Source: Methanomassiliicoccales archaeon (lineage in GTDB: Archaea > Thermoplasmatota > Thermoplasmata > Methanomassiliicoccales > JACIVX01). Taken from it: DNA of 64,000 nucleotides. The DNA is taken from the NCBI GenBank assembly GCA_050010535.1, contig JBEKKT010000007.1:6052-70051 (forward strand), in the 5' to 3' direction. A program made the position numbers and the translations under genes. The notes under the pieces are model-generated. The model was not told the DNA's origin. It did not search any database and saw only the letters and a list, made by a program, of their open reading frames with translations. Positions 16,799-64,000 of the stretch are shown piece after piece; positions within the stretch are counted from its first letter, which is position 1, and each line of letters begins with the position of its first letter.

Positions 16799-17165
16799 TA
16801 CCGGCAGAGGCCGGAAGGTCGTTCTCGACACGAACGCGCTGTTGATGCCTTTCGAATTCTCACTGAATCTTGACTTTGAACTGCGCGGTCTTCTCGGCGA
16901 CTACGAAATCCTGGTCCCGGGGCCCGTGGTTGGGGAGCTCAAGCGTTCGAAGAGCAGGTTCGCCAGGGCGGCCTTGGAATTCTCAAGGAGATACAGCATC
17001 GTCGAGACGGAGAAGCAGGGCGATGACGGGGTCGCTGACGTGGCTGCCAGACTCGGCGCGTTCGTTCTGACAAATGACGTTGAGCTTCAGCGCAAGTTGA
17101 GGAAGATGAAGATCAAGACGATCCGTTTAAGATCCCGAAGTCACCTTGTTCTGGACGAGGACTAA
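16782..17165 (+). CDS. PIN-domain nuclease (Fcf1/Utp24-like) conserved next to aIF2-gamma
   Basis: [14 protein letters not shown]...[12 protein letters not shown] is a PIN signature. The gene position after eif2g is typical of archaea. Confidence 0.7.
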
Positions 17166-17980
17166 ATCAGGGGTCGGGGCACGTCCGCAGAATCGTTTGA
17201 CTTGCTTGCGCCTGTCTCTTTTAGTCTCCCTCCGACTATTTTCTTGCCAAGTTCTGTCATGGCAAAGACAGGTATCTTCTTTCCTGCCTGAAGCAGTGAT
17301 TTCTCAGGCGCGAGCTCTCGAATCCATTTTGAGGCACACGCCGTCACCACGTCGCATTCCTCCAATAGGCCCTCGGTCTCTTTCTTGCTCACGCCGCTTG
17401 TGTGGACTGCAAAGAGGACGACATGGTCCCCGAAGCGCTTTCTGATTCGTTTTGCCTCTCGGGAGGCCACGAGAGTCACGCCAATCATCTTGAACCCAAG
17501 TCTTATGGCCAGCCCGGTACCTTCGAATTGGTCTATCCTTCCGGTTTCGGGGTCAAGGACCCTCTCTCTTCCGATGCAATCCACGACCTCCATGTACGGG
17601 GTCGTTTCCGTAATGCCCGACACCCGACCACCGATCCCTTGAATCAGTTCCGGATCGGTGACGACAGCTGTGCCTGCGCCGTCACAGACGACGACAGCGC
17701 AGTCCAGGAATCCCTTGGAGACCGCCATCGCCATCAACTCCGAGATGCCGAATGTGAGGAAATCCCTCATTCTCAGCTCCCGCCTGGGCGTGCACATGCC
17801 GAAATCCTTGATGCGGAAGGCAATGTTCTTCTGGACGATCTCTGGTGTGATCTTCTCGATGCCGCGGTACTTGTTGAAAAGTGGACAGTACTCGACGCGA
17901 GGGACGCCGATTTCCGTGACCTTTCCGTTCTCTATGACGACCCTAGTCCGGCCGAGTGCTTCGACGACATGCCTGTCCAC
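17162..17980 (-). CDS. Conserved Cys-rich protein, DUF2099 / methanogenesis-marker-8-like (assignment from memory)
   Basis: 272 aa with YCPLF, FGMCT, VVVCDGAGT, GIGGRVSG and TACASK motifs. The family call needs HMM confirmation. Confidence 0.45.
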   Translation of the reverse strand: MDRHVVEALGRTRVVIENGKVTEIGVPRVEYCPLFNKYRGIEKITPEIVQKNIAFRIKDFGMCTPRRELRMRDFLTFGISELMAMAVSKGFLDCAVVVCDGAGTAVVTDPELIQGIGGRVSGITETTPYMEVVDCIGRERVLDPETGRIDQFEGTGLAIRLGFKMIGVTLVASREAKRIRKRFGDHVVLFAVHTSGVSKKETEGLLEECDVVTACASKWIRELAPEKSLLQAGKKIPVFAMTELGKKIVGGRLKETGASKSNDSADVPRPLI

Positions 17981-52008: not shown

Positions 52009-52755
52009 ATGAAGATCATCGCCATAATGACCGACAATTTCAGATTCTTCTATCAGATCGTCCAAGATCTGAAGGAGAAGGACGAACCCTTCATCTCCCT
52101 GGGCTTTGGGGACCACGTCCCTCCTGCGGTCGGAGTGATCATCACCACCGAGGCCGAGAAGACCAGGATAACATTCCCTACCGTCGTCGCTGACGACGAT
52201 CCCTATCAGGCCGTCGATGTCGCGTCGGCGATATTGAAGGGCGGTAAGGATTTTGAGAACCTGAAGATAGGTATCGACCCTGGAAGCAGACCAGGATTGG
52301 CTGTCCTAGGTGACGGTAAGGTGTTGTTCACCGACGCCGTTCGTTCCCCGGAACAGGTTGCGGACACCATTGATCACGTCCTTGTCTGTTTCACTCACGC
52401 CAACTCTGTTGTCAGAATTGGCCACGGCGACAGAACGAACCGAAATCGTATTATCAAGGCGATCTGGGACAAGGTGGACGAGGTTGAGATCGTTGACGAG
52501 ACGAACACGACTACCAGAAGCGACACCCCTGACGTCGATGCGGCGCTCAGCATCGCGACTTCATCGGGGCATAGACTTTCTTCCCCGCCCGAGATCTCGC
52601 CCACCGCGGGCGAAATCCGCGACATACAAAGGCTGAGCAGGATCGAGAGCGGGGGCAGGGTGACAATATCATCTCTGCTGGCCAAAGCAGTGGCGCGGGG
52701 TGAGCTGACGCTGGATGGGGCTATAAGGGCACAGAGCAAGAAGGTCAGACGTTGA
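52009..52755 (+). CDS. Hypothetical protein with RuvX/YqgF-like RNase H-fold signature
   Basis: IGIDPGSRPGLAVLGDGKVLF, VEIVDETNTT and PDVDAALSIA resemble the YqgF catalytic motifs (GiDpG, vDErlTT, vDa.AA). The N-terminal 85 aa are unassigned. Confidence 0.45.
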   Translation: MKIIAIMTDNFRFFYQIVQDLKEKDEPFISLGFGDHVPPAVGVIITTEAEKTRITFPTVVADDDPYQAVDVASAILKGGKDFENLKIGIDPGSRPGLAVLGDGKVLFTDAVRSPEQVADTIDHVLVCFTHANSVVRIGHGDRTNRNRIIKAIWDKVDEVEIVDETNTTTRSDTPDVDAALSIATSSGHRLSSPPEISPTAGEIRDIQRLSRIESGGRVTISSLLAKAVARGELTLDGAIRAQSKKVRR

Positions 52756-54271
52756 CCCTTGAGAAGGAAGGAATCTTAGCAAGGAGCATCCCTTCTATAG
52801 ACACTGAATCCGTCCTCCTTGCCATGTCGGCAGCCCGTTCGAGCTTAAGCTCGTTTTCTGCATAGATTGTGTATAGCGTCTCGCCCATCTCGACCTGGTG
52901 CCCCCTCTTCTTGTTCAGCAAAATCCCTGCACCTTTATCCTTCGGAGCACCGGCAAGTCTAGCTATCCGAACCAGGTCCTTGTTGTTGATCGCAGAAACG
53001 TATCCAGATTTCCTGGCGGCAACATCGTAAGTGTACTGACCTACCTTTATATCCTTTGACTTGACGTTCGGGTCACCACCCTGGGCCTGTACGATTTCCT
53101 TGAACTTCTTCAGGGCCCTCCCGGACTCAAGGATTTCCTTGGCCCTCTCGACACCATTGCCTATTCCGCCCAGTTCGAGGAGCATGCCCGCTAATCCGCA
53201 GGACTTCTCGATGACACTTCCTGGGTACTTCTTCTCCCCTTCCAGTATGCTGATAGCCTCTCTAGCCTCCAGAGACGGTCCGATTGCCCTACCTACAGGC
53301 TGTCCTCCGTAGGTGACAGCGCACTCGACCTTTATTCCGAGCGCTTCGCCCAGGTCGATGAAGTCGCGGGCGTACGCCCTCGCCTCATCCATATTCTTGA
53401 CCTTGGTCCCCTCTCCCATCGGTATGTCTATGACCACGTAATCGGCGCCGGCCGCCTTCTTCTTCGACATGACGGATGCGAGCAGCTGGGCGTGAGGATC
53501 GATGCCAAGCGGATACTCCACTCTGATTATCAGATCGTCCGCCGGTGCCAAGTTCATGGATCCTCCCCAAGCCAACGTCCCTCCCACCTTCTCGGCTATC
53601 CTTTTCAGATCGGACGAGCTGAACTCGACAGGGGCGAACACCTCCACGATGTCTGCGGTGCCTCCGGCACTGCTGATCGCCCTCGAAGACGTCTTTGGTA
53701 TGAGAAATCCAGCGGCTGCGACGATCGGGACGATAATCAGCGTCACCTTGTTACCTGGTACGCCGCCGACGCTGTGGAAATCGAAGACTGGGGAGCGATC
53801 GAATTCGATGGTCTCCCCACTCTCCACCATAGCGATCGTGAGATCCACAGTCTCGCGGAGGTTCATGCCATTGATGTGGAGCGCGGTCACGTAAGCCGAC
53901 ATCTCGATGTTGGACAGATTCCTCGCCGCGATGTCGCCCACTAGATTCCTTATCTCCTCTGTGGAGAGCTCCCCTCCGTCCATCTTCTTCTTTATGCAGT
54001 CGACGGACTCCGGCCTGCCAGTACAAAGTACCTCGACCTCTTCCCCGGATTCCGCATGGAGGGTTGTGAAGGTCTTCCCGAGTATCCCGATCTCGCCTGG
54101 GTTCACGACGGAATCGGTCGTGTGAACGATGGCCGTGATGGTGTCCTTGGTCTCGTGCTTGATCTTGACTCTGTCTTGCTCTCTGACGCCGAGTTCCATG
54201 CAGTCCTCCTCGTGGAGGACTGCAGTCAGTTCTCCGGTGTCCATGTCGATGTATCTCGCTTTCAGTTTCAT
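52745..54271 (-). CDS. deoA: AMP phosphorylase (thymidine phosphorylase family)
   Basis: MKLKARYIDMDTGE N-terminal domain typical of archaeal AMPpase, plus glycosyltransferase family-3 core motifs (HSVGGVPGNK, SSRAISSAGGTAD). ATGA overlap with the rbcL stop. GTG 54283 is an alternative start. Confidence 0.9.
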   Translation of the reverse strand: MKLKARYIDMDTGELTAVLHEEDCMELGVREQDRVKIKHETKDTITAIVHTTDSVVNPGEIGILGKTFTTLHAESGEEVEVLCTGRPESVDCIKKKMDGGELSTEEIRNLVGDIAARNLSNIEMSAYVTALHINGMNLRETVDLTIAMVESGETIEFDRSPVFDFHSVGGVPGNKVTLIIVPIVAAAGFLIPKTSSRAISSAGGTADIVEVFAPVEFSSSDLKRIAEKVGGTLAWGGSMNLAPADDLIIRVEYPLGIDPHAQLLASVMSKKKAAGADYVVIDIPMGEGTKVKNMDEARAYARDFIDLGEALGIKVECAVTYGGQPVGRAIGPSLEAREAISILEGEKKYPGSVIEKSCGLAGMLLELGGIGNGVERAKEILESGRALKKFKEIVQAQGGDPNVKSKDIKVGQYTYDVAARKSGYVSAINNKDLVRIARLAGAPKDKGAGILLNKKRGHQVEMGETLYTIYAENELKLERAADMARRTDSVSIEGMLLAKIPSFSRVNV

Positions 54272-55524
54272 CCCGATCCCCACCTTTCGAGAGCGATTCC
54301 GAGCTCTCTGTGATCCTTCGCGTAGACGTCCAGTGGAGTCCCTTGGAAAGCCGCGTCTACCGCCTGGGACATCGCAGCCGCGCCCGCCCGGATGCCTTCC
54401 GGGTGTCCTGCGACGCCTCCCCCTGCCTGTATCTGGATGTTGTTTCCGGCGATCTCGATCAGCTTGCGGACAAGACTCGGATGAACTCCGCCGGAGCAGA
54501 CGGAGATCATCGGCCTGTATCTGACCTCATTGTCTTTGCAAGCCCGCTGCGTCTCCAGATCCTCCTTCGGGTCACCCTTCATCTTGCCGACTCCGAATGT
54601 CCCGACGTGCAAAGCATCTCCTCCGCACATGCGGATGAGCTTGGCCATGGGTCGCATCGCTATTCCGTGATCCTTGTTCCTCGTTATTGCCGCATGCATC
54701 GTCCTGTGGACGTGTATCGGTACTTTGATCGATGGATCCTCCGCCAGGGCCTGGACGGCCGAAAAACCGCAGGTCAGGACGTCGACCATAATCTCGGTCG
54801 CACCGAGTTTCTGGGCCTTCTCAGCCACCTCGACAATCTTGTCCCCTCGAGTCGAGACGTTGATCGCGTGTATCATGACGTGACCGGACTCGCTTTTCAA
54901 CCTGTCGAGCGCCTCAGCAATTGCCACGACCCGATTCTCCAGCGGGCAGAACTTCTGGTCGACCAGGGTCTCGTCGTCCTTGCCGTTCGTGAGTCCGCCC
55001 ATGCCCGCTTCGAAGACGTACGCCGCCGTTTCCTTTGGAGACAGTCCAATCTTCGGCTTGACTATCGTCCCGACTAGCGGTTTCTCCGGTCTCTTCAAGA
55101 TGTTCCTGATTCCCTGTATCCCGAACTTAGGTCCTTTGAACGCGTCAAGGATCGAACGAGGGAACTCGACGTCCTCGAGGCGTATGCCCTTCAGGATCTC
55201 CAGCCCAAAAAGGTTGCCCGCGATGATGCTCAGTATCTGCGGAACGCCCCCGACTTCGAGGCTGAAATCCTCGACAGGAAAGGCAACGGTCACAATGTTG
55301 CCCTTGATGTCGATGACCTTCCCGCTCAATCTGGAGAAGATGTCCTTATGAAGCGTCGTCAGTCCCGTCCAAGTGCCCGTCGATTGCTCGGTGGCTATCG
55401 CCGCCGCGGCCCTCCTCATGGGAAGGTCGGTCTTCACCTTGTACTTGCAGATGACGTGCGCATCAAGGTCTATCTTCTCGCCGAGATGCAGATACTTCCC
55501 AGAGTATTCCATGTGAATCACCAA
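54268..55524 (-). CDS. rbcL: RuBisCO large subunit, form III
   Basis: Catalytic residues are in place: KPKIGLS, GKDDE (carbamylated Lys context), HVHRTMHAA, LHVGT, GKMKGD, CSGGVHP, QAGGGVAGHP. The start may be ATG 55512. Confidence 0.9.
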   Translation of the reverse strand: MVIHMEYSGKYLHLGEKIDLDAHVICKYKVKTDLPMRRAAAAIATEQSTGTWTGLTTLHKDIFSRLSGKVIDIKGNIVTVAFPVEDFSLEVGGVPQILSIIAGNLFGLEILKGIRLEDVEFPRSILDAFKGPKFGIQGIRNILKRPEKPLVGTIVKPKIGLSPKETAAYVFEAGMGGLTNGKDDETLVDQKFCPLENRVVAIAEALDRLKSESGHVMIHAINVSTRGDKIVEVAEKAQKLGATEIMVDVLTCGFSAVQALAEDPSIKVPIHVHRTMHAAITRNKDHGIAMRPMAKLIRMCGGDALHVGTFGVGKMKGDPKEDLETQRACKDNEVRYRPMISVCSGGVHPSLVRKLIEIAGNNIQIQAGGGVAGHPEGIRAGAAAMSQAVDAAFQGTPLDVYAKDHRELGIALERWGSG

Positions 55525-55525
55525 A

Positions 55526-56449
55526 TCATCTGTTGAGAACCGTTTCCGATCCCAGTTCCTTCATTATAATGTCGTAAGCTGAGTAGGGCGAGATGACCCC
55601 GACCTCCGTGACTATCGAATCGACGTAGTCGGCTGGCGTAGCGTCGAACACGGGATTGAGTATCCTCACGTTCGTGGAAATCTCGCCCTCCCTGACTATT
55701 TCACCGGGGTCTCTCTCCTCTATCTCTACGAGCTCACCGTAGACGGTCTTCGGAGAGAACTTGAAGGTCTCGGCGCAGACGATGAACGGCACTCTGGCTT
55801 CATGGGCCGCGAGGGCGATCTGAGACGTACCGATCTTGTTTATTACGGCGCCATTCGACGCGATCGTGTCCGCGCCGACGTACACCAGATCGATGTCCTT
55901 CATTGCCCACCGGACAGCACTGTCGATGATGAGTGTAGTGGGAATGGCCTCTTTCGCAAGTTCATTGACCGTCAGCAGGCCCTGCCTCCACGGTCTTGAC
56001 TCGGTGGCATAGACCTCGATGTTCTTCCCTTCCGAGAAGGCCGTCTTCATGACGCTTAGGGCCGCCTTACTATTGCAATGCGTCAGGATGCGCTCGCCTC
56101 CTTTGATGCGCTGCGAGCCAATCCTTCCGATCGTGTTCACCGCTTCCTTCGACCGAGCGACGAAGCAATCAGCATTCGAGGCGACGAGGCTCTTGAGCTC
56201 CTTCACGCTCTTGGCGTCCTTGGCTCCTCGTGACACGGCCTGCACAGCATTCCAGAGGGATATCGCCGTGGGCCTCGTCGAAAGGAGGAGGCCCTTGCTT
56301 TCTTCGAGCTCCTTCTTGAATCGATCGAGATCCTTCCCGCTGAACTCCTGCGCCATTTCCTTCAGCGCACCAGCAGCTGCCCTGGCTATTTCGCCGGCAC
56401 CCCGGATCTCCATCGTCTTGATCGACTGCGCCACTTTCCTCAAGCTCAT
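55526..56449 (-). CDS. e2b2: Ribose-1,5-bisphosphate isomerase (eIF-2B alpha/beta/delta-like family)
   Basis: 307 aa. IRGAGEIARAAA, THCNS, VGADTIASNGAVINKIGT. Immediately upstream of rbcL. Confidence 0.85.
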   Translation of the reverse strand: MSLRKVAQSIKTMEIRGAGEIARAAAGALKEMAQEFSGKDLDRFKKELEESKGLLLSTRPTAISLWNAVQAVSRGAKDAKSVKELKSLVASNADCFVARSKEAVNTIGRIGSQRIKGGERILTHCNSKAALSVMKTAFSEGKNIEVYATESRPWRQGLLTVNELAKEAIPTTLIIDSAVRWAMKDIDLVYVGADTIASNGAVINKIGTSQIALAAHEARVPFIVCAETFKFSPKTVYGELVEIEERDPGEIVREGEISTNVRILNPVFDATPADYVDSIVTEVGVISPYSAYDIIMKELGSETVLNR

Positions 56450-56532: not shown

Positions 56533-58245
56533 TCAAATTCCCAAAGTCCTCTCGAGGTCTTTCAGTGGGAGGGTGTTTATGACGTCCTTGTTCCCAAGCC
56601 AACCTCTTCTTCCTGTGGCGACGCCGAACATCATGTAATTCAGCTGAGGTATGCTATGTGCATCGGTCCCAATGGACAGAGTGACTCCCCTATCCTTCGC
56701 CTTCCTGCAGTTCAGGTCGTTGAGATCGAGCCGCTCCGGGAGGGCGTTTATCTCAAGGAAGACTTTTTTCTCCAACGCGGCATCCATCACCCTGTCAATA
56801 TTGACTTGGTAGGGCTCTCTTTGCTCAATGACCCTTCCTGTCGGATGCGCCAGGATTGTGAGGTAGTCGTTCGACATCGCGGCGACAATCCTGTCCGTCA
56901 TCTCCTTCTCATCCATCTTGAATCCGGAGTGGACAGATCCGACCACGAAATCGAGATCCTTCAGCATGCTATCTGGATAATCTAAGGTCCCATCGTTGCG
57001 GATCTCGACCTCCGTCCCCATGAGGACTCTGATCCCTTCTGTCTTCCCGGAGACACTTCTCACAATCTCGACGTTCCTCATCAGGTCCTCCTTCGAGACT
57101 CCGCCCGCCACCTTTAGTGATTCCGAATGGTCGGTTATTCCGATGTACTCGTACCCCCTGTTCTTGGCCTCAAGCGCTATTTCTTCCACCGTCGCGCTCC
57201 CGTCGCTTAGAGTCGAGTGCACGTGAAAATCACCCTTGATATCTCCGAGTTCAAGCAAGATAGGGAGTCTGTGGTCGATAGCAGCCTTGATCTCCCCTCT
57301 GTTCTCGCGGATCTCCGGCGGCATCACCTCAAGATCGAGAGCAGCATACACCTCCTCCTCTGTCCTGCTGGCTATCCTCTCATCAGTGTCCTTTGTGAAA
57401 ACCCCATACTCGTTTATCTTGAGTCCTTTGTCGATCGCAAGCGACCTCAGCGAGATGTTGTGCTCTTTGGACCCGGTGAAGTACTGGAGCGCCGCACCAT
57501 AGCTGTCAGTTTCCACCACTCTGATGTCGACCTGCACCCCCTCCTTCAGCCTGATGCTCGATTTCGTGTCGCCCTTCGCGATGACCTCCGAGACGTTCGG
57601 ATTCCTGACGAAAATATCCATTACATTCTTGGGCTCGTCGCTGCCGACAAGGATGTCTATGTCGCCGATCGTCTCCCTCATTCGACGGAGGCTCCCCGCG
57701 ACGCTTATCAGCTTGTAGCCTCCGGCCGTCACCATGTAGTCGACAATGCTTTTTGCGTAGAAGTACGCGTATCCTAGGAGCATCCGACCAGTTCGTTGCT
57801 CGAGAAGCTGGATCCCTTTGAGTATATTCTCTTCCGACCTACCGCCGAAGCCCTTCAGCCCGCGGATCCTGTGGTCCTCGGCCGCTTTCTTCAGCTCGTG
57901 TAGGTTCGTTATTTTCAGTTCCTTGTACAAACGCATGATCGTCTTCGGCCCGATCTCCGGGACCGTCATGATTTGGAGCAGTCCGACTGGGAACTCCTCT
58001 CTCAGTTCCTTCAGATAATTCAGCTCTCCAGACTGGATAATCTCGGCGACCTTCTTCGCGATTGCCTCCCCTATGCCCGGGATCTCTCGGAGCTTACCCT
58101 CTCTGTAGTACTCCTGGATATCCTTGTCAAGCTCCTCGATGTTCCTTGCAGCCCTTCTGTATGCTCTGGGTTTGAACTCGACCCCCTTCAGTTCCAGAAG
58201 ATCGGCTATTTCATAGAGGACCTGGGCCACCTTCTCGTTGGTCAT
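56533..58245 (-). CDS. polX: Family X DNA polymerase with C-terminal PHP domain
   Basis: HhH motifs, GSLRRMRETIGDIDILV nucleotidyltransferase motif, PHP motif GDFHVHSTLSDG. Confidence 0.9.
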   Translation of the reverse strand: MTNEKVAQVLYEIADLLELKGVEFKPRAYRRAARNIEELDKDIQEYYREGKLREIPGIGEAIAKKVAEIIQSGELNYLKELREEFPVGLLQIMTVPEIGPKTIMRLYKELKITNLHELKKAAEDHRIRGLKGFGGRSEENILKGIQLLEQRTGRMLLGYAYFYAKSIVDYMVTAGGYKLISVAGSLRRMRETIGDIDILVGSDEPKNVMDIFVRNPNVSEVIAKGDTKSSIRLKEGVQVDIRVVETDSYGAALQYFTGSKEHNISLRSLAIDKGLKINEYGVFTKDTDERIASRTEEEVYAALDLEVMPPEIRENRGEIKAAIDHRLPILLELGDIKGDFHVHSTLSDGSATVEEIALEAKNRGYEYIGITDHSESLKVAGGVSKEDLMRNVEIVRSVSGKTEGIRVLMGTEVEIRNDGTLDYPDSMLKDLDFVVGSVHSGFKMDEKEMTDRIVAAMSNDYLTILAHPTGRVIEQREPYQVNIDRVMDAALEKKVFLEINALPERLDLNDLNCRKAKDRGVTLSIGTDAHSIPQLNYMMFGVATGRRGWLGNKDVINTLPLKDLERTLGI

Positions 58246-58292: not shown

Positions 58293-59846
58293 TCAGTGCC
58301 TGAAGACTCGGGTCCCTGTGAACACCATGGCCATATTGTGTTCGTTCGCCGCCTGAATGACCTCTTCGTCCCTGACCGATCCTCCGGGCTGTATGATCGC
58401 AACCACACCAGCTTTTGCGGCCTCGTCCACTCCATCCCGGAACGGGAAGAAAGCATCGGAAGCCATCACGCTGCCTCTTGCTTCCTCCTTCGCCTTCGAG
58501 GCGGCGATTATGGAGGAGTCCACTCTGCTCATCTGCCCGGCGCCGATGCCGACCGCTCTCTCGTCCTTAGCGTAAATTATAGCATTGGACCAGACGTGTT
58601 TCGCTACCTTCCAGGCGAAAAGCATAGATTTGATCTCCTCCTCCGTAGGTTGCCGCTTCGTAACCACCTTAAGGTTCTCAGGCTTGAGTTTGATATACTC
58701 GGATGTTTGAACAAGTAGGCCGCCCTTGATCTTCTTCATCTTCATCTCTGGCTTCTCATCACGAGTGATCGGGGCGTTCGTCCTGAGGATCCGGATGTTC
58801 TTCTTCTTCATCAGGGTCTCGAGCGCGCCTGGCGTGTACGAAGGCGCTATGACCGCCTCGACGAAGTGTTTTGATATCTCCGCCGCCGTCGCGTCGTCGA
58901 GTTCCCTGTTGACTCCTATGACGCATCCGAACGCTGCTACTGGGTCGACATTGTAAGCGACCACGAAAGCGTCGGCGATCTTGTCGGCGCTGGCTATCCC
59001 GCAGGGGTTGGTGTGCTTCAACACGCATGATGTCGGCCTCTCAAAGTCCCTGAGGATCTCGAGGGCTGCTTCCAGGTCAAGGATGTTGTTGAATGACAGT
59101 TCCTTGCCGTGCAGCCTCTCGCTCCTGGAAATACATACCCCCGCCGCAAACGGATCAGTGTAGAACGCCGCCGACTGGTTCGGGTTCTCCCCATAGCGAA
59201 GATCCATGTCCTTCTCGAATCCAAGAGATAGAGTCGGCGGGAACAGGTCCGATCCGAACGCCTTGCCGAGGTACGAGGCAATCATGGAATCGTAGAACGA
59301 GGTACTTCTGAATGCTTCCAGCATCAGAGCCTTGAGCGTCTCCGCGCTTATGTCGCCGCCTGAGCCCCTCATCTCGTCGAGTATGGAGCCGTACCGGCCA
59401 GGATTCGTGACAACCGCCACGGACTGATAGTTCTTCGCAGCGGCTCTGATCATGCTCGGGCCGCCGATGTCGATGTTCTCGATGATGTCCTCGATGGTCG
59501 AATTCGGTTTCAGCACGGTCTCCTTGAACGGGTACAGGTTGACGACGACCATGTCTATCTTCTTAATGCCTCTGTCTGAGAGCGTCTTCATGTGCTCCGG
59601 AAGATCCCGTCGGGCGAGAATGCCCGCGTGGATCAGGGGGTGAAGCGTCTTGACTCTTCCATCCAGCATCTCGGGAAACCCCGTCACCTGTGAAATCTCG
59701 ATCGCGTCTATGTTGTTCTTCTTCAGCATCGATGCCGTTCCGCCCGTCGAGATCAACTCGACGCCCATCTGCTTCAGTTCCGATGCGAACTCGACGACAC
59801 CGGTCTTGTTAGAAACACTGATTAATGCCCGTTCTATCTTGACCAT
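58293..59846 (-). CDS. purH: Bifunctional AICAR transformylase / IMP cyclohydrolase
   Basis: 517 aa. [19 protein letters not shown], and IQPGGSVRD at the C-terminus. Confidence 0.95.
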
Positions 59847-59893
59847 ACCGATTCCTCCCAGCTAAGGTAAGGCATACAAGAAACAGTATGCCG

Positions 59894-59905
59894 GGCATAT
59901 ATGCC
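59894..59905. promoter_or_regulatory. Perfectly palindromic TATA element GGCATATATGCC in the purH / methyltransferase divergent region
   Basis: 12-nt perfect palindrome about 52 nt upstream of the purH ATG 59846 (SD GGGAGGAAT in between). It could in principle bind TBP in either orientation. Confidence 0.35.
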
Positions 59906-60045
59906 ACACTTAGACATAAATATGATTGCAGGGAGGCTCGAATCTCACAGTCGACTTTCGGTCAGAGCGACTAGGGCCTCACCCCTGGGCTCAGAATCCA
60001 AAGACTTTTATTCGCCGACCCCTGTTCGTAATTCCGGTCAATCTG

Positions 60046-60822
60046 ATGATCGTTATCAGCGAGAGGATCAACGGTCTCTTCGCATCCGTTGCGAAGGCCA
60101 TCGACAAGCGGGATTCGAAGTTCATTCAGGACCTTGCCCTGAGACAAGTCGAATGCGGGGCGCAGATGCTGGACGTGAACACAGGCCCCGGAAGAGAGGA
60201 CGCGCCAGCGGTGATGGATTGGTTGGTCAGGACCGTTCAAGAAGTCACCGATCTTCCACTGTGCCTGGATACTCCAGGTGCAAAAACCATGGATGCGGGC
60301 CTAAAGGCATGCAAGAACAAGGTCGTGATGAACTCCACGACCGCTGAACGCAAGAGGATGGAGCGGTTCTTCCCCCTTTGCAGGGAACACGGCACAGAGA
60401 TCATTTGCCTTGCAATGGACGAGCGAGGCATACCGAATGATGCCCAGTCTCGTGCCGAAATGGCGATGTTGATGATGACCACCGCCATGGAGTACGATAT
60501 CATGCCGGATCGCCTCTATCTCGATCCGCTCGTAATGCCTGTTGGAGCGGCTCAGGACCAGGCTGGGAAAGCCATCCAGGCGCTGCAACTGTTTCAGACT
60601 CTGAACAACCCTCCCCCGCGAACGGTGGTGGGACTCAGCAATGTTTCCAATCAAACGAAAGAGAGAGGTCTCCTGAATAGGACCTACCTGGCAATGCTAA
60701 TGGGTGTCGGGCTCACAGCGGCAATATGCGATCCAGAGGACGAGGATCTCATGAAGATCATCAAGGCAGGCCAGGTTCTTCTCAATCAGAAGTTGTACTG
60801 CGACGATTTCTTGAGAGCCTGA
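60046..60822 (+). CDS. Pterin-binding methyltransferase (MeTr/AcsE/MtrH-like, methyl-THF:corrinoid type)
   Basis: MIVISERINGLFASV start, GAQMLDVNTGPG, LCLDTP, GLSNVSN motifs of the DHPS-like pterin-binding barrel. TTTTATTC at 60006-60013 lies upstream. The ORF-track start 59926 adds a non-homologous extension. Confidence 0.75.
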   Translation: MIVISERINGLFASVAKAIDKRDSKFIQDLALRQVECGAQMLDVNTGPGREDAPAVMDWLVRTVQEVTDLPLCLDTPGAKTMDAGLKACKNKVVMNSTTAERKRMERFFPLCREHGTEIICLAMDERGIPNDAQSRAEMAMLMMTTAMEYDIMPDRLYLDPLVMPVGAAQDQAGKAIQALQLFQTLNNPPPRTVVGLSNVSNQTKERGLLNRTYLAMLMGVGLTAAICDPEDEDLMKIIKAGQVLLNQKLYCDDFLRA

Positions 60823-60845
60823 GATGTCCCACTGGAGAAAAGGGG

Positions 60846-61763
60846 TCAGACAATCGGTCTGGGGTATAGGCCAGCTCTCTGCACTATCTCGGGGACCTTC
60901 TGCTCCCAGGCTATTGCCATGATGTGAACGCCATGAACTCCCTTGATCTTTCTCAGGTGTTCGATCTGTTCCACGCAAATAGCGATTCCCTCCAACTTCG
61001 GGTCAGCGGCCTTCCTCATCCGTTCTATGATGCCGTCCGGAACCATAGTTCCTGGAACCTTCGTCTTCATGTATTTCGCTGCGCCAAGTGATTTCAGAGG
61101 AAGGACTCCCGCGAGCAAGTGGACCTTCTTGTCGAGTCCCCTGTCTCTGACGCCCACCATCCAACGCTCGAATCTCTCCATGTCGAAGACCGCTTGGGTC
61201 TGTATGAACTCCGCTCCGGCCGTAATCTTCTTCCCCAGCCTCGCGACTCTGAATTCGAATGGGTCCGCAAACGGATTCTCTGTCGCTCCTAAGAAGACCT
61301 TCGGTGCCTCTTCTAGCTCGTCCCCGCCCCAGACTCTCTTCTCATCCCTCATCATCCTGAATATCTGCAACTCTTGTATCGAGTCGATATCGTAGACGTT
61401 CTTCGACTCCTTCTGATTCCCGAATGTCTGATGGTCGCCGCTGAGGCACAAGACATTCTTCACTCCCAGCGCTGCGGCGCCGAGCAGATCCGACTGAAGA
61501 GCGATCCTGTTCCGATCCCTGCACGTCATCTGCATTACTGGTTCAGCACCCTCCTGTATGCAGAGGACTGCGGAGGCGAAGCTGGACATTCTCACGATCG
61601 CAGTCTGGTTGTCCGTTACATTGAACGCGTCCCCGTAATCCTTCATCATCCTCGCATGATTCCTTACGACTTCTGGGTTCGGAGATCTTGGAGGGCCTAT
61701 CTCGGCCGTCACCGCGAATCTCCCAGCGCTGAGTACCTTCTCCAGATTGCTGCCCGCTCTCAG
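60846..61763 (-). CDS. metF: Methylenetetrahydrofolate reductase (acetogen-type MetF); start probably CTG 61763
   Basis: NVTDNQTAIVRMS, TCRDRNRIALQSDLLGAAALGVKNVLCLSGDH. The track start, GTG 61712, falls inside the conserved strand RFAVTAEIGPPRS. Upstream, the open frame has no ATG/GTG/TTG. It does have CTG 61763, overlapping the metV TGA, with GGAGG 7 nt upstream. Confidence 0.85.
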   Translation of the reverse strand: MRAGSNLEKVLSAGRFAVTAEIGPPRSPNPEVVRNHARMMKDYGDAFNVTDNQTAIVRMSSFASAVLCIQEGAEPVMQMTCRDRNRIALQSDLLGAAALGVKNVLCLSGDHQTFGNQKESKNVYDIDSIQELQIFRMMRDEKRVWGGDELEEAPKVFLGATENPFADPFEFRVARLGKKITAGAEFIQTQAVFDMERFERWMVGVRDRGLDKKVHLLAGVLPLKSLGAAKYMKTKVPGTMVPDGIIERMRKAADPKLEGIAICVEQIEHLRKIKGVHGVHIMAIAWEQKVPEIVQRAGLYPRPIV

Positions 61764-62464
61764 TCGACACCCTCCTTTGCCTTCTTCTCCTCAGGAGTGA
61801 GGACTGCTTCCGGGCGCACTATCTTCCTCGGCCCGCCGCTCCTGCTCGGTATCCAGTTCTTCGGCGGAATCACCTTCTCCATCAATTCGAGCTGGTCGAA
61901 TCTCTTGAGGTTCTGGAAAATCTGATCCCAACCACAAGGGGTCTCTGGATTGACCTCGCACTTGCCGTTCTGCGAGCCCCCGCATGGTCCGTTCAGGAGG
62001 CTCTTCGCGCATCTCACGATGGGACAGATCCCCCCGGTCAAGTGAAGGACGCAGTCCCCGCATCCGCCGCATTTCTCGAGGAAGATGCCCTGCTCCTCAG
62101 GGGCCCCCATGTTTGAGGTGTTGAGTCCTGGTACTATCCTCGTGTCCGGGTAGAGATCCTGCAATACCTGCGCCCCGACGCCGCAGGCGATCGAGATGAT
62201 GACATCTCTCCCCTCCACGCTCGGGTGCATCTCCCTTACCCACTCCTTTTCGCACTGCCTCTCCACAGTAATCTCCGAGACCTCCCAGTCTTTATCGTTC
62301 AAGTCTGAGTATAGGCGCAGGGATTCTGCCAGGAGTCCCACCTCCTTTTCCCCTCCCGCGAGGCACATAGCGACACAAGACCTGCACCCTGCGACGAGGA
62401 TCCTGTGGTGACCTTCGACGATCTGGCAGATCTCTCCCAGGGGTTTTTGCTCCGCGACGATCAC
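61760..62464 (-). CDS. metV: MetV (MTHFR C-terminal-domain/zinc-finger subunit)
   Basis: GTG start in a GTGA overlap with mvhD. (M)IVAEQKPLGEI..., CGGCGDC, ICPIVRCAKSLLNGPCGG. The upstream part of the 375-aa track ORF is out-of-frame overlap with mvhD. Confidence 0.75.
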   Translation of the reverse strand: MIVAEQKPLGEICQIVEGHHRILVAGCRSCVAMCLAGGEKEVGLLAESLRLYSDLNDKDWEVSEITVERQCEKEWVREMHPSVEGRDVIISIACGVGAQVLQDLYPDTRIVPGLNTSNMGAPEEQGIFLEKCGGCGDCVLHLTGGICPIVRCAKSLLNGPCGGSQNGKCEVNPETPCGWDQIFQNLKRFDQLELMEKVIPPKNWIPSRSGGPRKIVRPEAVLTPEEKKAKEGVD

Positions 62465-62877
62465 TTGACCACCTTCTTCAGTGGACTCGGTCCAAGGTCT
62501 TCGACGCGCGAGACCATCTCCCGGACGATTTCGGGAAACCTCCACCCCTGGTTCGAGGCGACGTTGAACATCTCCAATCTCTCCTTCTCGATTCCGATAG
62601 CGTCGAGAAGCCGCTTCGCATGTTCGACCCTCTTCCTCGCCTCGAAGTTCCCGTACTCGTAGTGGCAATTCTTCTCGAGGCATCCGGCCACGAACACTGC
62701 GTCGGCGCCTTCTCTGAACGCCTTCAGTATGTGGAGGACGTCGATCCTTCCCGCGCAGGGGACCCTTATGACCATCGTTTCCGGTGAGTAGCGGATATGC
62801 ATGACGCCTGCGAGGTCCGCCGAGGAGTACGCTCCATGACTGCAGCAGTAGCCGATGATTCTCACGCGATCGGTCAT
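62461..62877 (-). CDS. mvhD: MvhD/FlpD-like [2Fe-2S] electron-transfer protein
   Basis: 138 aa. IIGYCCSHGAY, VPCAGRID, VFVAGCLEKNCHY motifs. ATGA overlap with hdrA. Confidence 0.85.
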   Translation of the reverse strand: MTDRVRIIGYCCSHGAYSSADLAGVMHIRYSPETMVIRVPCAGRIDVLHILKAFREGADAVFVAGCLEKNCHYEYGNFEARKRVEHAKRLLDAIGIEKERLEMFNVASNQGWRFPEIVREMVSRVEDLGPSPLKKVVK

Positions 62878-64000
62878 CTTCCGCCACCTCTCACGCTCGC
62901 GGACGACTGCGCCTCGATCTGCCCGTCCGTGTAGCCATATATCTGTATCGCCTTGCTAGGGCAGATCCCTACGCAAATGCCGCAACCCTGGCATGTCTGG
63001 ATGTCGATCTCCGCCATTCCGTCCTCGTTGATGAACGGCGCCGTGTACGGACAGCTTCTGATGCAGCAGAGGCAGACTGAGCACTTCTCCGGGTCGACCT
63101 CTGCGACAGTCCCTCCGACCTCTATGAATGGTAATGAGAGGAGGGAGACAGCTCCTGACGCGGCGGCCGACGCCGCCAGGAGATCCTCCGAAACGAGTCT
63201 CGGCCCTGCGGCGCCTCCGCAAAGGAAGACACCCTCTCTCAACGTTGATGTCGGCTCTAGCCGGACCTTGGATCCGACCAGGAATCCGCTCGCATCGATC
63301 GGGATCCTGAAGATCTTCGCAAGCCGCCTCGTATCTTGAGGTTTCAAGATATCGCCAACGACAACGAGATCTGCAGGCAGGCTCAGGGCAGTGTCCGAGC
63401 TTTCATCGGTGACTAGCACTCTCAGACTCCCCTCGCGCTCGATCACCACTTCTCCCTCGCACCGTACGAACCTGATCCCGCATTCCTGCGCCCTCTTGTA
63501 ATCGAGTTCGTTCATGCCATATGTTCTGAATTCGTTGGCGATGATCGTGACATCCGCAGAGGGCAGTAGGGCCTTCAACCTCAGAGCGTTGGTTATCGCG
63601 TCCAGGTGGCAGCTCCTTCCGACCACCACTTCCGACGAGGCCTTTGGGGCTATCATGACGACTTTTTCTGGGCAGACTTCTTGCGAGCTCAAGAACCTGT
63701 TGAACTCCCCTTGAGTGATCACTCGCTCATCCTCATCTTCTCCTCTTGGTGCGAACGGCACCGCGTCTAGGACGAGGATCACTGCCCCGCACCTGACATC
63801 CTCTTCCCCCTTTGGAGTCTGGATCAATGCCCGGAAGTCTCCGGGATGTCCCTGGAAGTCGACGATCTCTGCGTCGAGCAGAATCCTCACCGAAGGGCTG
63901 GATCTTAGTCCTTGTAGGATCTTCTGGACGTATTCAGCAGACACGCCATGAAATGTAGCTATCACGGAGACCTCTTCCAGCGATTCCTTCGGATCGACAA
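62874..64000 (-). CDS. hdrA: HdrA-like flavoprotein (heterodisulfide reductase subunit A family), 5' end beyond the window
   Basis: C-terminal 2x[4Fe-4S] motifs CSVCLCCIRSCP and CQGCGICVGICP, plus GVFLCGGAAGP. The reading frame stays open to position 64000. Confidence 0.8.
   Translation of the reverse strand, partial: VDPKESLEEVSVIATFHGVSAEYVQKILQGLRSSPSVRILLDAEIVDFQGHPGDFRALIQTPKGEEDVRCGAVILVLDAVPFAPRGEDEDERVITQGEFNRFLSSQEVCPEKVVMIAPKASSEVVVGRSCHLDAITNALRLKALLPSADVTIIANEFRTYGMNELDYKRAQECGIRFVRCEGEVVIEREGSLRVLVTDESSDTALSLPADLVVVGDILKPQDTRRLAKIFRIPIDASGFLVGSKVRLEPTSTLREGVFLCGGAAGPRLVSEDLLAASAAASGAVSLLSLPFIEVGGTVAEVDPEKCSVCLCCIRSCPYTAPFINEDGMAEIDIQTCQGCGICVGICPSKAIQIYGYTDGQIEAQSSASVRGGGR

Follow-up and report, generated by a model that had tools for sequence, protein, structure and literature searches.

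Gene organization of the locus

The locus studied here lies at positions 60046-64000 of a 64,000-nucleotide (nt) stretch of DNA assigned to a Methanomassiliicoccales archaeon (the window, on which positions are numbered unless a contig is named), and was analyzed together with its neighbours. It holds the distal part of a five-gene operon, hdrA-like A, hdrA-like B, mvhD, metV and metF. With moderate confidence, the operon is read as encoding an Hdr-type MetVF methylene-tetrahydrofolate (methylene-H4F, also written methylene-THF) reductase, probably linked to ferredoxin by electron bifurcation or confurcation. The operon sits in a conserved folate one-carbon (C1) gene island that comprises folD, fhs, the operon itself, an AcsE-type methyltransferase (MeTr) and purH. 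The features are as follows (aa, amino acids).

58293-59846, minus strand: purH (AICAR transformylase/IMP cyclohydrolase); Pfam MGS and AICARFT_IMPCHas
60046-60822, plus strand: AcsE-type MeTr, 258 aa; separate transcription unit, convergent with metF
60823-60845: spacer of 23 nt between the meTr and metF stops, GATGTCCCACTGGAGAAAAGGGG, read directly
60846-61763, minus strand: metF, 305 aa; PF02219, 128 bits; non-canonical CTG start
61760-62464, minus strand: metV, 234 aa; PF12225, 123 bits; GTG start
62461-62877, minus strand: mvhD (FlpD family), 138 aa; PF02662, 151 bits; ATG start
62874-64000, minus strand: HdrA-like subunit B, partial, C-terminal 374 codons; frame open to the window edge
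Contig L001 6958/7057-8268: hdrA-like A; same operon as B, directly upstream of it and outside the window

The strong profile matches throughout and the conserved synteny described below place these gene features far beyond chance. An earlier note, made from the window alone, had described a partial hdrA-like gene, mvhD, metV and metF on the minus strand joined by ATGA, GTGA and CTGA overlaps, and this arrangement was confirmed. The ATG start of mvhD lies within an ATGA overlap shared with the subunit B stop (TGA 62874-62876), as read directly; the GTG start of metV lies within a GTGA overlap with the mvhD stop; and metF and metV are adjacent and co-oriented with a 4-nt overlap. The distance of 23 nt between metF and the methyltransferase gene also proved exact, but the two genes are not divergent as had been stated: they run tail to tail. 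It is purH that is divergent from meTr.

The window part of subunit B comprises a degenerate thioredoxin-reductase (TrxR)-like domain followed by a C-terminal 2x[4Fe-4S] ferredoxin domain, and scores 148-156 bits against the NCBIfam HdrA models. MvhD scores 145 bits against NF045873 (VhuD), which is under the model cut-off, and an identical copy of the protein is encoded on 6 public contigs; its homologs are predicted to bind one [2Fe-2S] cluster (PMC9430772). MetV is cysteine-rich, with 14 Cys and a C-terminal DUF5981 / 'MTHFR C-terminal' domain, and no solved-structure relative of it was found. MetF stays below the cut-off of the equivalog model for the E. coli-type NAD(P)H-dependent enzyme (TIGR00676, 71.6 bits, cut-off 293.7) and is distant from the solved NAD(P)H-type methylene-THF reductases, with best scores of 37-45 bits.

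The folate gene island beyond the window edge

The exact MvhD of the window is encoded on L001, a 118-kb JGI metagenome contig that contains the window. Going upstream of subunit B, L001 carries hdrA-like A, a divergent polysaccharide-deacetylase-family gene, fhs (735-785 bits to formate-THF ligase models) and then folD, on the strand opposite to fhs. Five further loci (L095, from a sister species, and L086, L087, L089 and L094) have the order folD(-), fhs(+), where present a DUF3786 gene(-), deacetylase(-), A, B, mvhD, metV and metF(+), meTr(-) and purH(+), and all five keep purH downstream of meTr. L094 has three extra genes between metF and meTr. The junctions within the operon show a 4-nt overlap almost throughout the six archaeal loci. 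Protein identities between the window's lineage and four environmental loci are as follows.

MetF, MetV, MeTr, Fhs and FolD: 68-91%
MvhD: 68-83%
HdrA-like A: 49-80%
HdrA-like B: 44-76%

MetV is 66-87% identical to the MetV of the relatives.

The earlier note had placed hdrB and hdrC, if present, beyond the window edge, and had proposed extending the contig to look for them together with folD, fhs and acs/cdh. The extension yielded fhs and folD but not hdrB or hdrC. HdrB and HdrC queries from a Negativicutes cluster gave no tblastn match (E <= 1e-3) in the window, in L001, in L097 (an overlapping contig from another assembly that runs ~6.6 kb past the other end of the window) or in the 20-kb loci of the five relatives. 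The contig coverage in this search was ~74 kb, that is, the window and ~9 kb upstream of it in L001. The hdrBC genes are thus absent from the cluster in all six archaeal loci (L001, L086, L087, L089, L094 and L095), and HdrBC is not part of the conserved unit. No corrinoid protein gene and no cdh/acs gene occurs in the gene tables of the regions covered, which are most of the window, L001 and L097.

The methyltransferase, which had been called MeTr/AcsE/MtrH-like, is by sequence a full-length AcsE-type MeTr and not an MtrH. It exceeds the threshold of family NF005719 (297.7 bits, cut-off 259), whereas its score against the MtrH model NF002142 is 15.5 bits (cut-off 287). Residues 1-257 align without gaps to the Moorella thermoacetica MeTr 2E7F (258 bits). 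In this alignment D75, N96, D160 and N199 of 2E7F, which we take to be the pterin-binding residues of the Moorella enzyme, are all identical in the window protein. The MeTr proteins of the relatives are 258-261 aa long, which supports ATG 60046 as the start codon. TTG 59926 was considered as an alternative start and rejected because both the homolog lengths and the gapless alignment begin from ATG 60046.

The presence of fhs and folD just upstream of the operon, of purH downstream and of a full-length AcsE supports the assignment of the locus to folate-type C1 metabolism, as the earlier note had proposed. The surprise expressed there at a folate branch in an archaeon is not warranted, the H4F C1 pathway having already been published for Methanomassiliicoccales (PMC6147122, PMC10804542).

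MetF could instead act outside folate metabolism, on C1 units bound to tetrahydromethanopterin (H4MPT), as a Mer substitute of the kind proposed for ANME-1, a group of the anaerobic methanotrophic archaea (ANME). It has been suggested that H4MPT is the carrier with which MetF and MetV of uncultured archaea work in ANME-1, and MetFV-HdrA-MvhD clusters occur in 'Ca. Syntrophoarchaeum' (PMC9012536). The ANME-1 case, however, rests on the absence of the very folate genes that surround the operon here: Fhs with its 735-785 bits, FolD, PurH and an AcsE that has all four of the residues named above are strictly folate enzymes. Moreover, Methanomassiliicoccales lack ftr and mch and no role of H4MPT is known there (PMC6147122, PMC10804542), and MetF is 57% identical to that of the acetogen-type Negativicutes cluster. 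The H4MPT reading was rejected on this gene context and is hardly credible.

Three further features of the island were observed. A polysaccharide-deacetylase-family gene (PF01522) lies directly upstream of the operon, in divergent orientation, in all six loci; the deacetylase region spans L001 5960-6778, L086 6850-8306, L087 7048-8546, L089 7045-8548 and L094 5264-6732. A DUF3786 gene stands beside the deacetylase gene in four of the six loci and is absent from the window's lineage and from the sister species L095. Formate/nitrite transporter genes adjoin folD in L086 and L089.

Complementarity of the HdrA-like subunits A and B

E356 and K409 of HdrA are numbered as in M. thermolithotrophicus, and the structures used for comparison are 5ODC and 8RVU. 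Against the solved HdrA (5ODC, E 3e-78), the alignment of subunit A covers residues 148-563; the N-terminal and C-terminal HdrA domains are lacking in A. Subunit A keeps the GxGxxG motif of the flavin adenine dinucleotide (FAD) site, a CxxC that lines up with DCSIC194-197 and contains the Cys197 equivalent, the inserted ferredoxin domain with two CxxCxxCxxxCP motifs, and the cluster motif of the TrxR domain (CVGSRD...CSKVCC). The equivalents of E356 and K409, the residues used for recognising bifurcating HdrA flavins (PMC9430772), are also kept (VDVERS; CCKYALK). In the window's lineage and three further lineages, A retains E356, K409, Cys197, the inserted ferredoxin domain and the TrxR-domain cluster.

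Full-length subunit B matches the PDB HdrA entries 8rvu/5odc with E values of 1e-70 to 1e-65. It aligns to the N-terminal domain of HdrA (8RVU residues 12-243) and to a second stretch, residues 408-653, within which the C-terminal ferredoxin domain lies. The N-terminal cluster residues Cys27, Cys29, Cys62 and Cys87 are invariant in a 20-sequence alignment, as are eight cysteines of the C-terminal domain across 20 homologs. The alignment to solved HdrA shows neither Cys197 nor the inserted ferredoxin domain in B, one cysteine is left of the TrxR-domain cluster motif, and the positions of E356 and K409 are occupied by N and T. Hence the HdrA-like protein of the window, on which the earlier note based its electron-bifurcating enzyme, does not by itself carry the bifurcation signature, Cys197 or the inserted ferredoxin domain; these reside in A, outside the window.

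Between them, A and B have each element of a canonical HdrA protomer once, distributed over two thioredoxin-reductase folds. The inserted ferredoxin domain, which is the ferredoxin site, occurs in A only, and the ferredoxin domain at the C-terminus, which is the MvhD site, occurs in B only. The N-terminal [4Fe-4S] cluster would be ligated by the four cysteines of B and completed by the Cys197 equivalent of A.

The Pfam lists of A and B contain no GltD-type NAD(P)H-binding domain. The only matches in that direction are weak ones to the FAD motif, at 27-30 bits to PRK12770/PRK12771, whose cut-offs are 343 and 516. The 'NADH-type' bifurcation chemistry of the earlier note, for lack of a GltD-like module in either subunit, is without support in the sequence.

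At L094 6849-8902 (Methanomassiliicoccus sp., GCA_016109435.1) both HdrA-like genes are shortened. Subunit A of this locus has 335 aa and the inserted ferredoxin domain is gone; subunit B has 349 aa, the N-terminal cluster domain is gone, and identity to B of the window's lineage is 27%. MvhD is 38% identical, with MetV (66%) and MetF (71%) retained. These truncations suggest the loss of the ferredoxin (bifurcating) branch in that lineage.

Comparison with related systems

A bacterial counterpart is found in a locus of a Negativicutes metagenome-assembled genome (MAG), L096, with the order hdrC-hdrB-hdrA-mvhD-metV-metF-corrinoid protein-meTr-folD-fhs, which is a Sporomusa-type 'Hdr-type' methylene-THF reductase cluster. 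The window MetF and MetV are 57% and 46% identical to the L096 proteins. BLAST places A on the first half and B on the second half of three fused HdrAs (P0024, P0030 and P0035), of which P0030 is the 941-aa HdrA of L096. The likeness to the MetFV-HdrABC-MvhD set of Moorella, which the earlier note had drawn, therefore holds for the homologous gene string but not for hdrBC.

The Hdr-type methylene-THF reductase of Moorella goes back to Mock et al. 2014, as cited in PMC9430772. Moorella thermoacetica, Sporomusa ovata and the present archaeon share the order hdrA-mvhD-metV-metF, with MeTr, folD and fhs nearby (L096). In S. ovata HdrA, an additional N-terminal TrxR-like module bears the E/K signature, and the part at residues 383-942 is similar to methanogen HdrA apart from the missing inserted ferredoxin domain (PMC9430772). 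The S. ovata protein thus has two TrxR-like modules with E/K in the first only, which is the division seen between A and B. In contrast to Moorella and Sporomusa, the two HdrA modules here are separate genes, A keeps the inserted 2x[4Fe-4S] ferredoxin domain that the Sporomusa-type protein lacks, the cluster has no hdrB or hdrC, and no corrinoid protein gene stands beside MeTr. The NAD(P)H-binding GltD insertion of Moorella HdrA (PMC9430772) has no counterpart here, and the host is a probable archaeal methanogen rather than an acetogen.

A profile search of genome contigs with subunit B returned at least 80 loci, nearly all bacterial, with one short Methanomassiliicoccales contig (L072) among the matches listed. 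The survey failed as a taxonomic probe, since almost only bacterial loci came up, and was used for cluster architectures instead; the following counts hold among the matches listed. The colinear HdrA-MvhD-MetV-MetF string occurs in 55 of 80 loci. HdrA of the bacterial loci is a single frame of ~1020-1050 or ~1415-1550 aa, and is truly split only in Methanomassiliicoccales loci, L072 included. Between subunit B and the bacterial proteins, identity is 30-39%. The same string is found in clusters from Desulfobacterota, Chloroflexota and other groups, with Desulforhopalus singaporensis DSM 12130 (L083) and Desulfopila aestuarii DSM 18488 (L046) as examples. The bacterial fused HdrA of ~1020-1050 aa spans nearly all of A, including the region of the inserted domain, as well as B, and some of the fused-HdrA loci also have folD and fhs, as here. 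In 24 loci the flanks measure 5 kb or more on each side; hdrBC lies alongside in 12 of these and is lacking in 11, among them those of the cultured Desulfopila aestuarii and Desulforhopalus singaporensis. The 11 well-flanked clusters without hdrB imply that HdrBC is dispensable for the conserved unit. In seven bacterial loci (L012, L044, L058, L068, L071, L080 and L085) a single in-frame stop was observed 60-107 codons from the start of the fused HdrA; it may mark a selenocysteine codon (TGA) and not a divided gene.

These counts bear on the model of the earlier note, in which a full MetFV-HdrABC-MvhD hexamer would be formed with HdrB and HdrC encoded elsewhere in the genome, either shared with the methanogenic heterodisulfide reductase or duplicated from it. 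Methanomassiliicoccales genomes have been reported to contain hdrABC-mvhADG (PMC7824343), and for 'Met' complexes Poudel et al. took HdrABC to be non-colocalised (PMC6085437). The TrxR-domain [4Fe-4S] motif, HdrC-directed in canonical HdrA (PMC9012536), is still present in subunit A, and half of the well-flanked bacterial clusters do carry hdrBC. The hexamer is nonetheless distinctly unlikely: hdrBC is missing from the six archaeal clusters, from ~74 kb of this contig and from L097, as it is from 11 of the 24 well-flanked bacterial clusters, and neither A nor B has a GltD insertion like that of Moorella (PMC9430772 for Moorella).

Complementary tandem or fused HdrA pairs have been described in ANME, together with the Moorella HdrA, and read as obligate heterodimers (Chadwick et al. 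2022, PMC9012536). The present pair is alike in its complementarity, which implies an obligate heterodimer with broken two-fold symmetry. The ANME pairs mostly occur with hdrBC or other partners and no folate island, whereas the present operon lies within one. The suspected carrier in ANME-1 and Syntrophoarchaeum is H4MPT, in contrast to the folate context here.

Compared with the MvhADG-HdrABC complex of hydrogenotrophic methanogens (5ODC, 8RVU), the domains and ligands of one HdrA protomer are spread over A and B, MvhD is shared, and the E356/K409 signature is found in A. In the gene string MetVF takes the place of HdrBC, which holds the heterodisulfide site, and hydrogenase subunits are not encoded nearby according to the Pfam tables of the regions covered. 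The canonical HdrA dimer would here be replaced by a heterodimer with one complete electron-splitting unit.

A homolog of the 'Met' bifurcating complex has been listed for Methanomassiliicoccus intestinalis (Poudel et al. 2018, PMC6085437), which belongs to the same archaeal order and has the same co-localisation of MetF, MetV and MvhD and a folate methyl branch. The split complementary HdrA pair and the hdrBC-free cluster are not described in the surveys PMC6085437, PMC6147122 and PMC10804542. Earlier publications cover the H4F C1 pathway in this order and the putative 'Met' homolog of M. intestinalis, and PMC9012536 reports HdrA heterodimers of complementary subunits as well as a MetFV-HdrA-MvhD cluster in an archaeon. 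The present analysis adds that this clade has HdrA divided between two complementary genes, that hdrBC is consistently absent from the cluster in the six archaeal loci, and that the module has decayed in L094, the one locus from the genus Methanomassiliicoccus that was examined. By sequence comparison it also adds that A and B keep a complete ferredoxin branch, which the Sporomusa-type protein lacks, and that CTG is used as the predicted start at two coupled junctions.

Proposed electron path and physiological role

Among the steps of the folate-dependent C1 pathway, the wiring of methylene-THF reductase to electron carriers is the least settled, also as regards the partner of the Hdr-type enzyme in Moorella and Sporomusa. 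In the archaeal version the enzyme comes naturally dissected, with two complementary HdrA subunits, no HdrBC and a full ferredoxin-binding branch, which makes it a convenient candidate for expression and structure work on whether this enzyme class bifurcates.

In the proposed mechanism the flavoprotein MetF would interconvert methylene-H4F and methyl-H4F, a couple with an E0' of ~ -200 mV (PMC9430772). Electrons would pass from MetF to the Fe-S protein MetV, to the [2Fe-2S] cluster of MvhD, to the C-terminal ferredoxin domain of B and then to the FAD of A, which bears the E/K signature. This route through MetV/MvhD and B to A's flavin is put forward on the model of Mvh-Hdr, in which electrons travel from MvhD via the C-terminal domain to FAD (PMC9012536). 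The heterodimer of A and B would mimic one functional half of the canonical HdrA homodimer, with B providing the N-terminal cluster domain and A the Cys197 ligand, the inserted ferredoxin domain and the TrxR-domain cluster. The low-potential exit would lead from the cluster formed by the N-terminal domain of B and Cys197 of A to the inserted ferredoxin domain of A and on to ferredoxin. In canonical HdrA the TrxR-domain [4Fe-4S] cluster hands electrons on to HdrC (PMC9012536); the corresponding cluster of A, which has no encoded partner, might face MetV (with MetVF replacing HdrBC), an HdrBC encoded elsewhere, or nothing. It is plausible that bifurcation or confurcation connects the H4F couple with ferredoxin. 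Physical association of such components has a precedent in pulldowns from S. ovata, in which MetVF, MvhD and HdrA interact (PMC9430772); in the archaeal operon the signs of a joint unit are synteny and translational coupling.

One competing account dispenses with energetic coupling: the HdrA-like pair and MvhD would form an electron wire or entry module for a plain MetVF reductase that is dependent on ferredoxin or fed by a hydrogenase. With reduced ferredoxin as donor, MetVF purified from S. ovata can reduce methylene-THF by itself, and the Hdr-like proteins were not recovered with it (PMC9430772). B lacks the E/K signature, the cluster lacks a gene for a third partner, and L094 has lost the inserted ferredoxin and N-terminal domains while its MetVF stays 66-71% identical. 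A mere wire, however, would not need two flavoprotein folds, nor does it account for the full and costly bifurcation toolkit that is kept under purifying selection in A of four lineages, or for the complete set of N-terminal cluster cysteines in B. A non-bifurcating enzyme is accordingly considered unlikely, albeit the strongest of the alternatives, and the ferredoxin-linked bifurcating or confurcating reductase is preferred.

Several points weigh against this preference. The genes for the HdrA-like proteins and MvhD evolve much faster than those for MetVF (44-57% vs 70-87% identity). The domain losses in A and B of L094 mean that bifurcation cannot be universal in Methanomassiliicoccales. The Moorella/Sporomusa complex has never been purified intact, and the activity of purified MetVF with reduced ferredoxin, cited above, requires no Hdr-like subunit (PMC9430772). 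Finally, a third redox partner is not encoded nearby: hdrBC, a GltD-like module and mvhAG are all missing, the last from the Pfam tables of the regions covered.

A more far-reaching version, which we regard as quite doubtful, holds that in environmental Methanomassiliicoccales HdrA(A/B)-MvhD-MetVF is a self-contained bifurcating enzyme in which MetVF replaces HdrBC as the high-potential branch and which, with H2 (through MvhAG docking on MvhD) or another donor, would couple methylene/methyl-H4F conversion to ferredoxin. If so, a reverse run would allow the 'obligately H2-dependent' methyl-reducing methanogens to oxidise methyl groups to formate, i.e. to disproportionate methanol.

The AcsE homolog would transfer methyl groups from a corrinoid protein to H4F or in reverse. 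Physiologically, the system probably serves the anabolic supply of C1 units (for purines, thymidylate and methionine) from methyl-corrinoid or formate, and the locus thus bears on how Methanomassiliicoccales make anabolic C1 units from methyl groups or formate. An oxidative, anabolic use of methyl groups for purine synthesis has been proposed in this order (PMC6147122, which cites Lang et al. 2015 for it), and the conserved purH neighbour fits this view. The formate-to-methyl direction, feeding methionine or acetyl-CoA synthesis, is equally compatible (PMC10804542).

CTG start codons at coupled junctions

The only plausible start of metF is CTG 61763, within the CTGA overlap with the metV stop. 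The frame contains no ATG, GTG or TTG between the upstream in-frame stop at 61791-61793 and GTG 61712, and the codons upstream of GTG 61712 encode LRAGSNLEKVLSAGRF / LRAGSNLEKVLSAGRFAV, which is kept in all relatives. A GGAGG Shine-Dalgarno-like sequence lies 7 nt upstream of the CTG. The relatives start metF exactly at the 4-nt overlap with the metV stop, with ATG in L086, L089 and L094 and GTG in L087. The same position is CTG in the window and in L001, L002 and L003 (three independent assemblies of one organism), and also in the sister species L095. The conserved peptide and the start position of the relatives indicate that the CTGA overlap, already listed in the earlier note, is real and that MetF has 305 aa, as do its orthologs; public gene calls of MetF in this lineage, at 267, 288 or 296 aa, are mis-started. 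A frameshift or sequencing error at the MetF N-terminus was ruled out, given the CTG in three independent assemblies and the sister species and the conservation of frame and peptide.

A second CTGA was observed at the junction of hdrA-like A and B (L001 8265-8268, outside the window), where the relatives have ATGA; a conserved KGDELI N-terminal motif follows. The sister species L095 also has CTGA at both the A/B and the metV/metF junctions, at which the relatives have ATGA or GTGA. Full-length subunit B has 560 aa as called and 579 aa from the CTG overlap start; the public calls of B, at 525/560 aa, are mis-started as well.

The purH-meTr intergenic region, the host and the remaining window genes

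The intergenic region between purH and meTr contains two adjacent palindromic elements followed by ATAAATAT, together spanning 59871-59923. The palindromes are listed below.

59871-59892: palindrome 1, GGCATAC-N8-GTATGCC
59894-59905: palindrome 2, GGCATATATGCC

Core positions of the palindromic elements are invariant across five lineages, and the GGCATA...TATGCC pattern has no other occurrence in the 64-kb window. A second conserved TATA-like box, CTTTTATT, is located at 60005-60012, 34 nt ahead of the meTr ATG. The palindromic elements and the sequence that follows them may represent an operator and a bidirectional promoter for purH and meTr.

The named close homologs of the window proteins all come from MAGs labelled Methanomassiliicoccales archaeon, with identities of 73% for B, 67-86% for MetF and 80-96% for aIF2-gamma; the aIF2-gamma of a Methanomassiliicoccus sp. 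MAG is 80% identical. A methanogenesis marker 8 protein is encoded at 17162-17980 on the minus strand (TIGR03275, 331 bits, cut-off 233); no other methanogen-specific gene was seen in the Pfam tables, whose coverage is most of the window, L001 and L097. The host is thus a Methanomassiliicoccales archaeon and probably a methanogen. These tables list no hydrogenase family, including mvhAG, and the 64-kb window contains no Rfam family at the gathering threshold and no tRNA gene. The other annotatable genes of the window are housekeeping genes.

On the minus strand at 52745-56449, an AMP phosphorylase-like gene (Glycos_transf_3 and PYNP_C), a RuBisCO large-subunit gene and an IF-2B-family gene, possibly for ribose-1,5-bisphosphate isomerase, follow one another in a row reminiscent of the archaeal AMP salvage pathway. 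Next to this row, at 56533-58245, lies a gene for a family X DNA polymerase with a PHP domain, and the block formed by the row and the polymerase gene is kept downstream of purH in L086, L087 and L095. At the far end of the window two polysaccharide-deacetylase-family genes stand in tandem, one at 113-874 and the other just upstream at L097 5808-6575. Counting the copy beside the hdrA-like operon, this family appears to be expanded in the organism.

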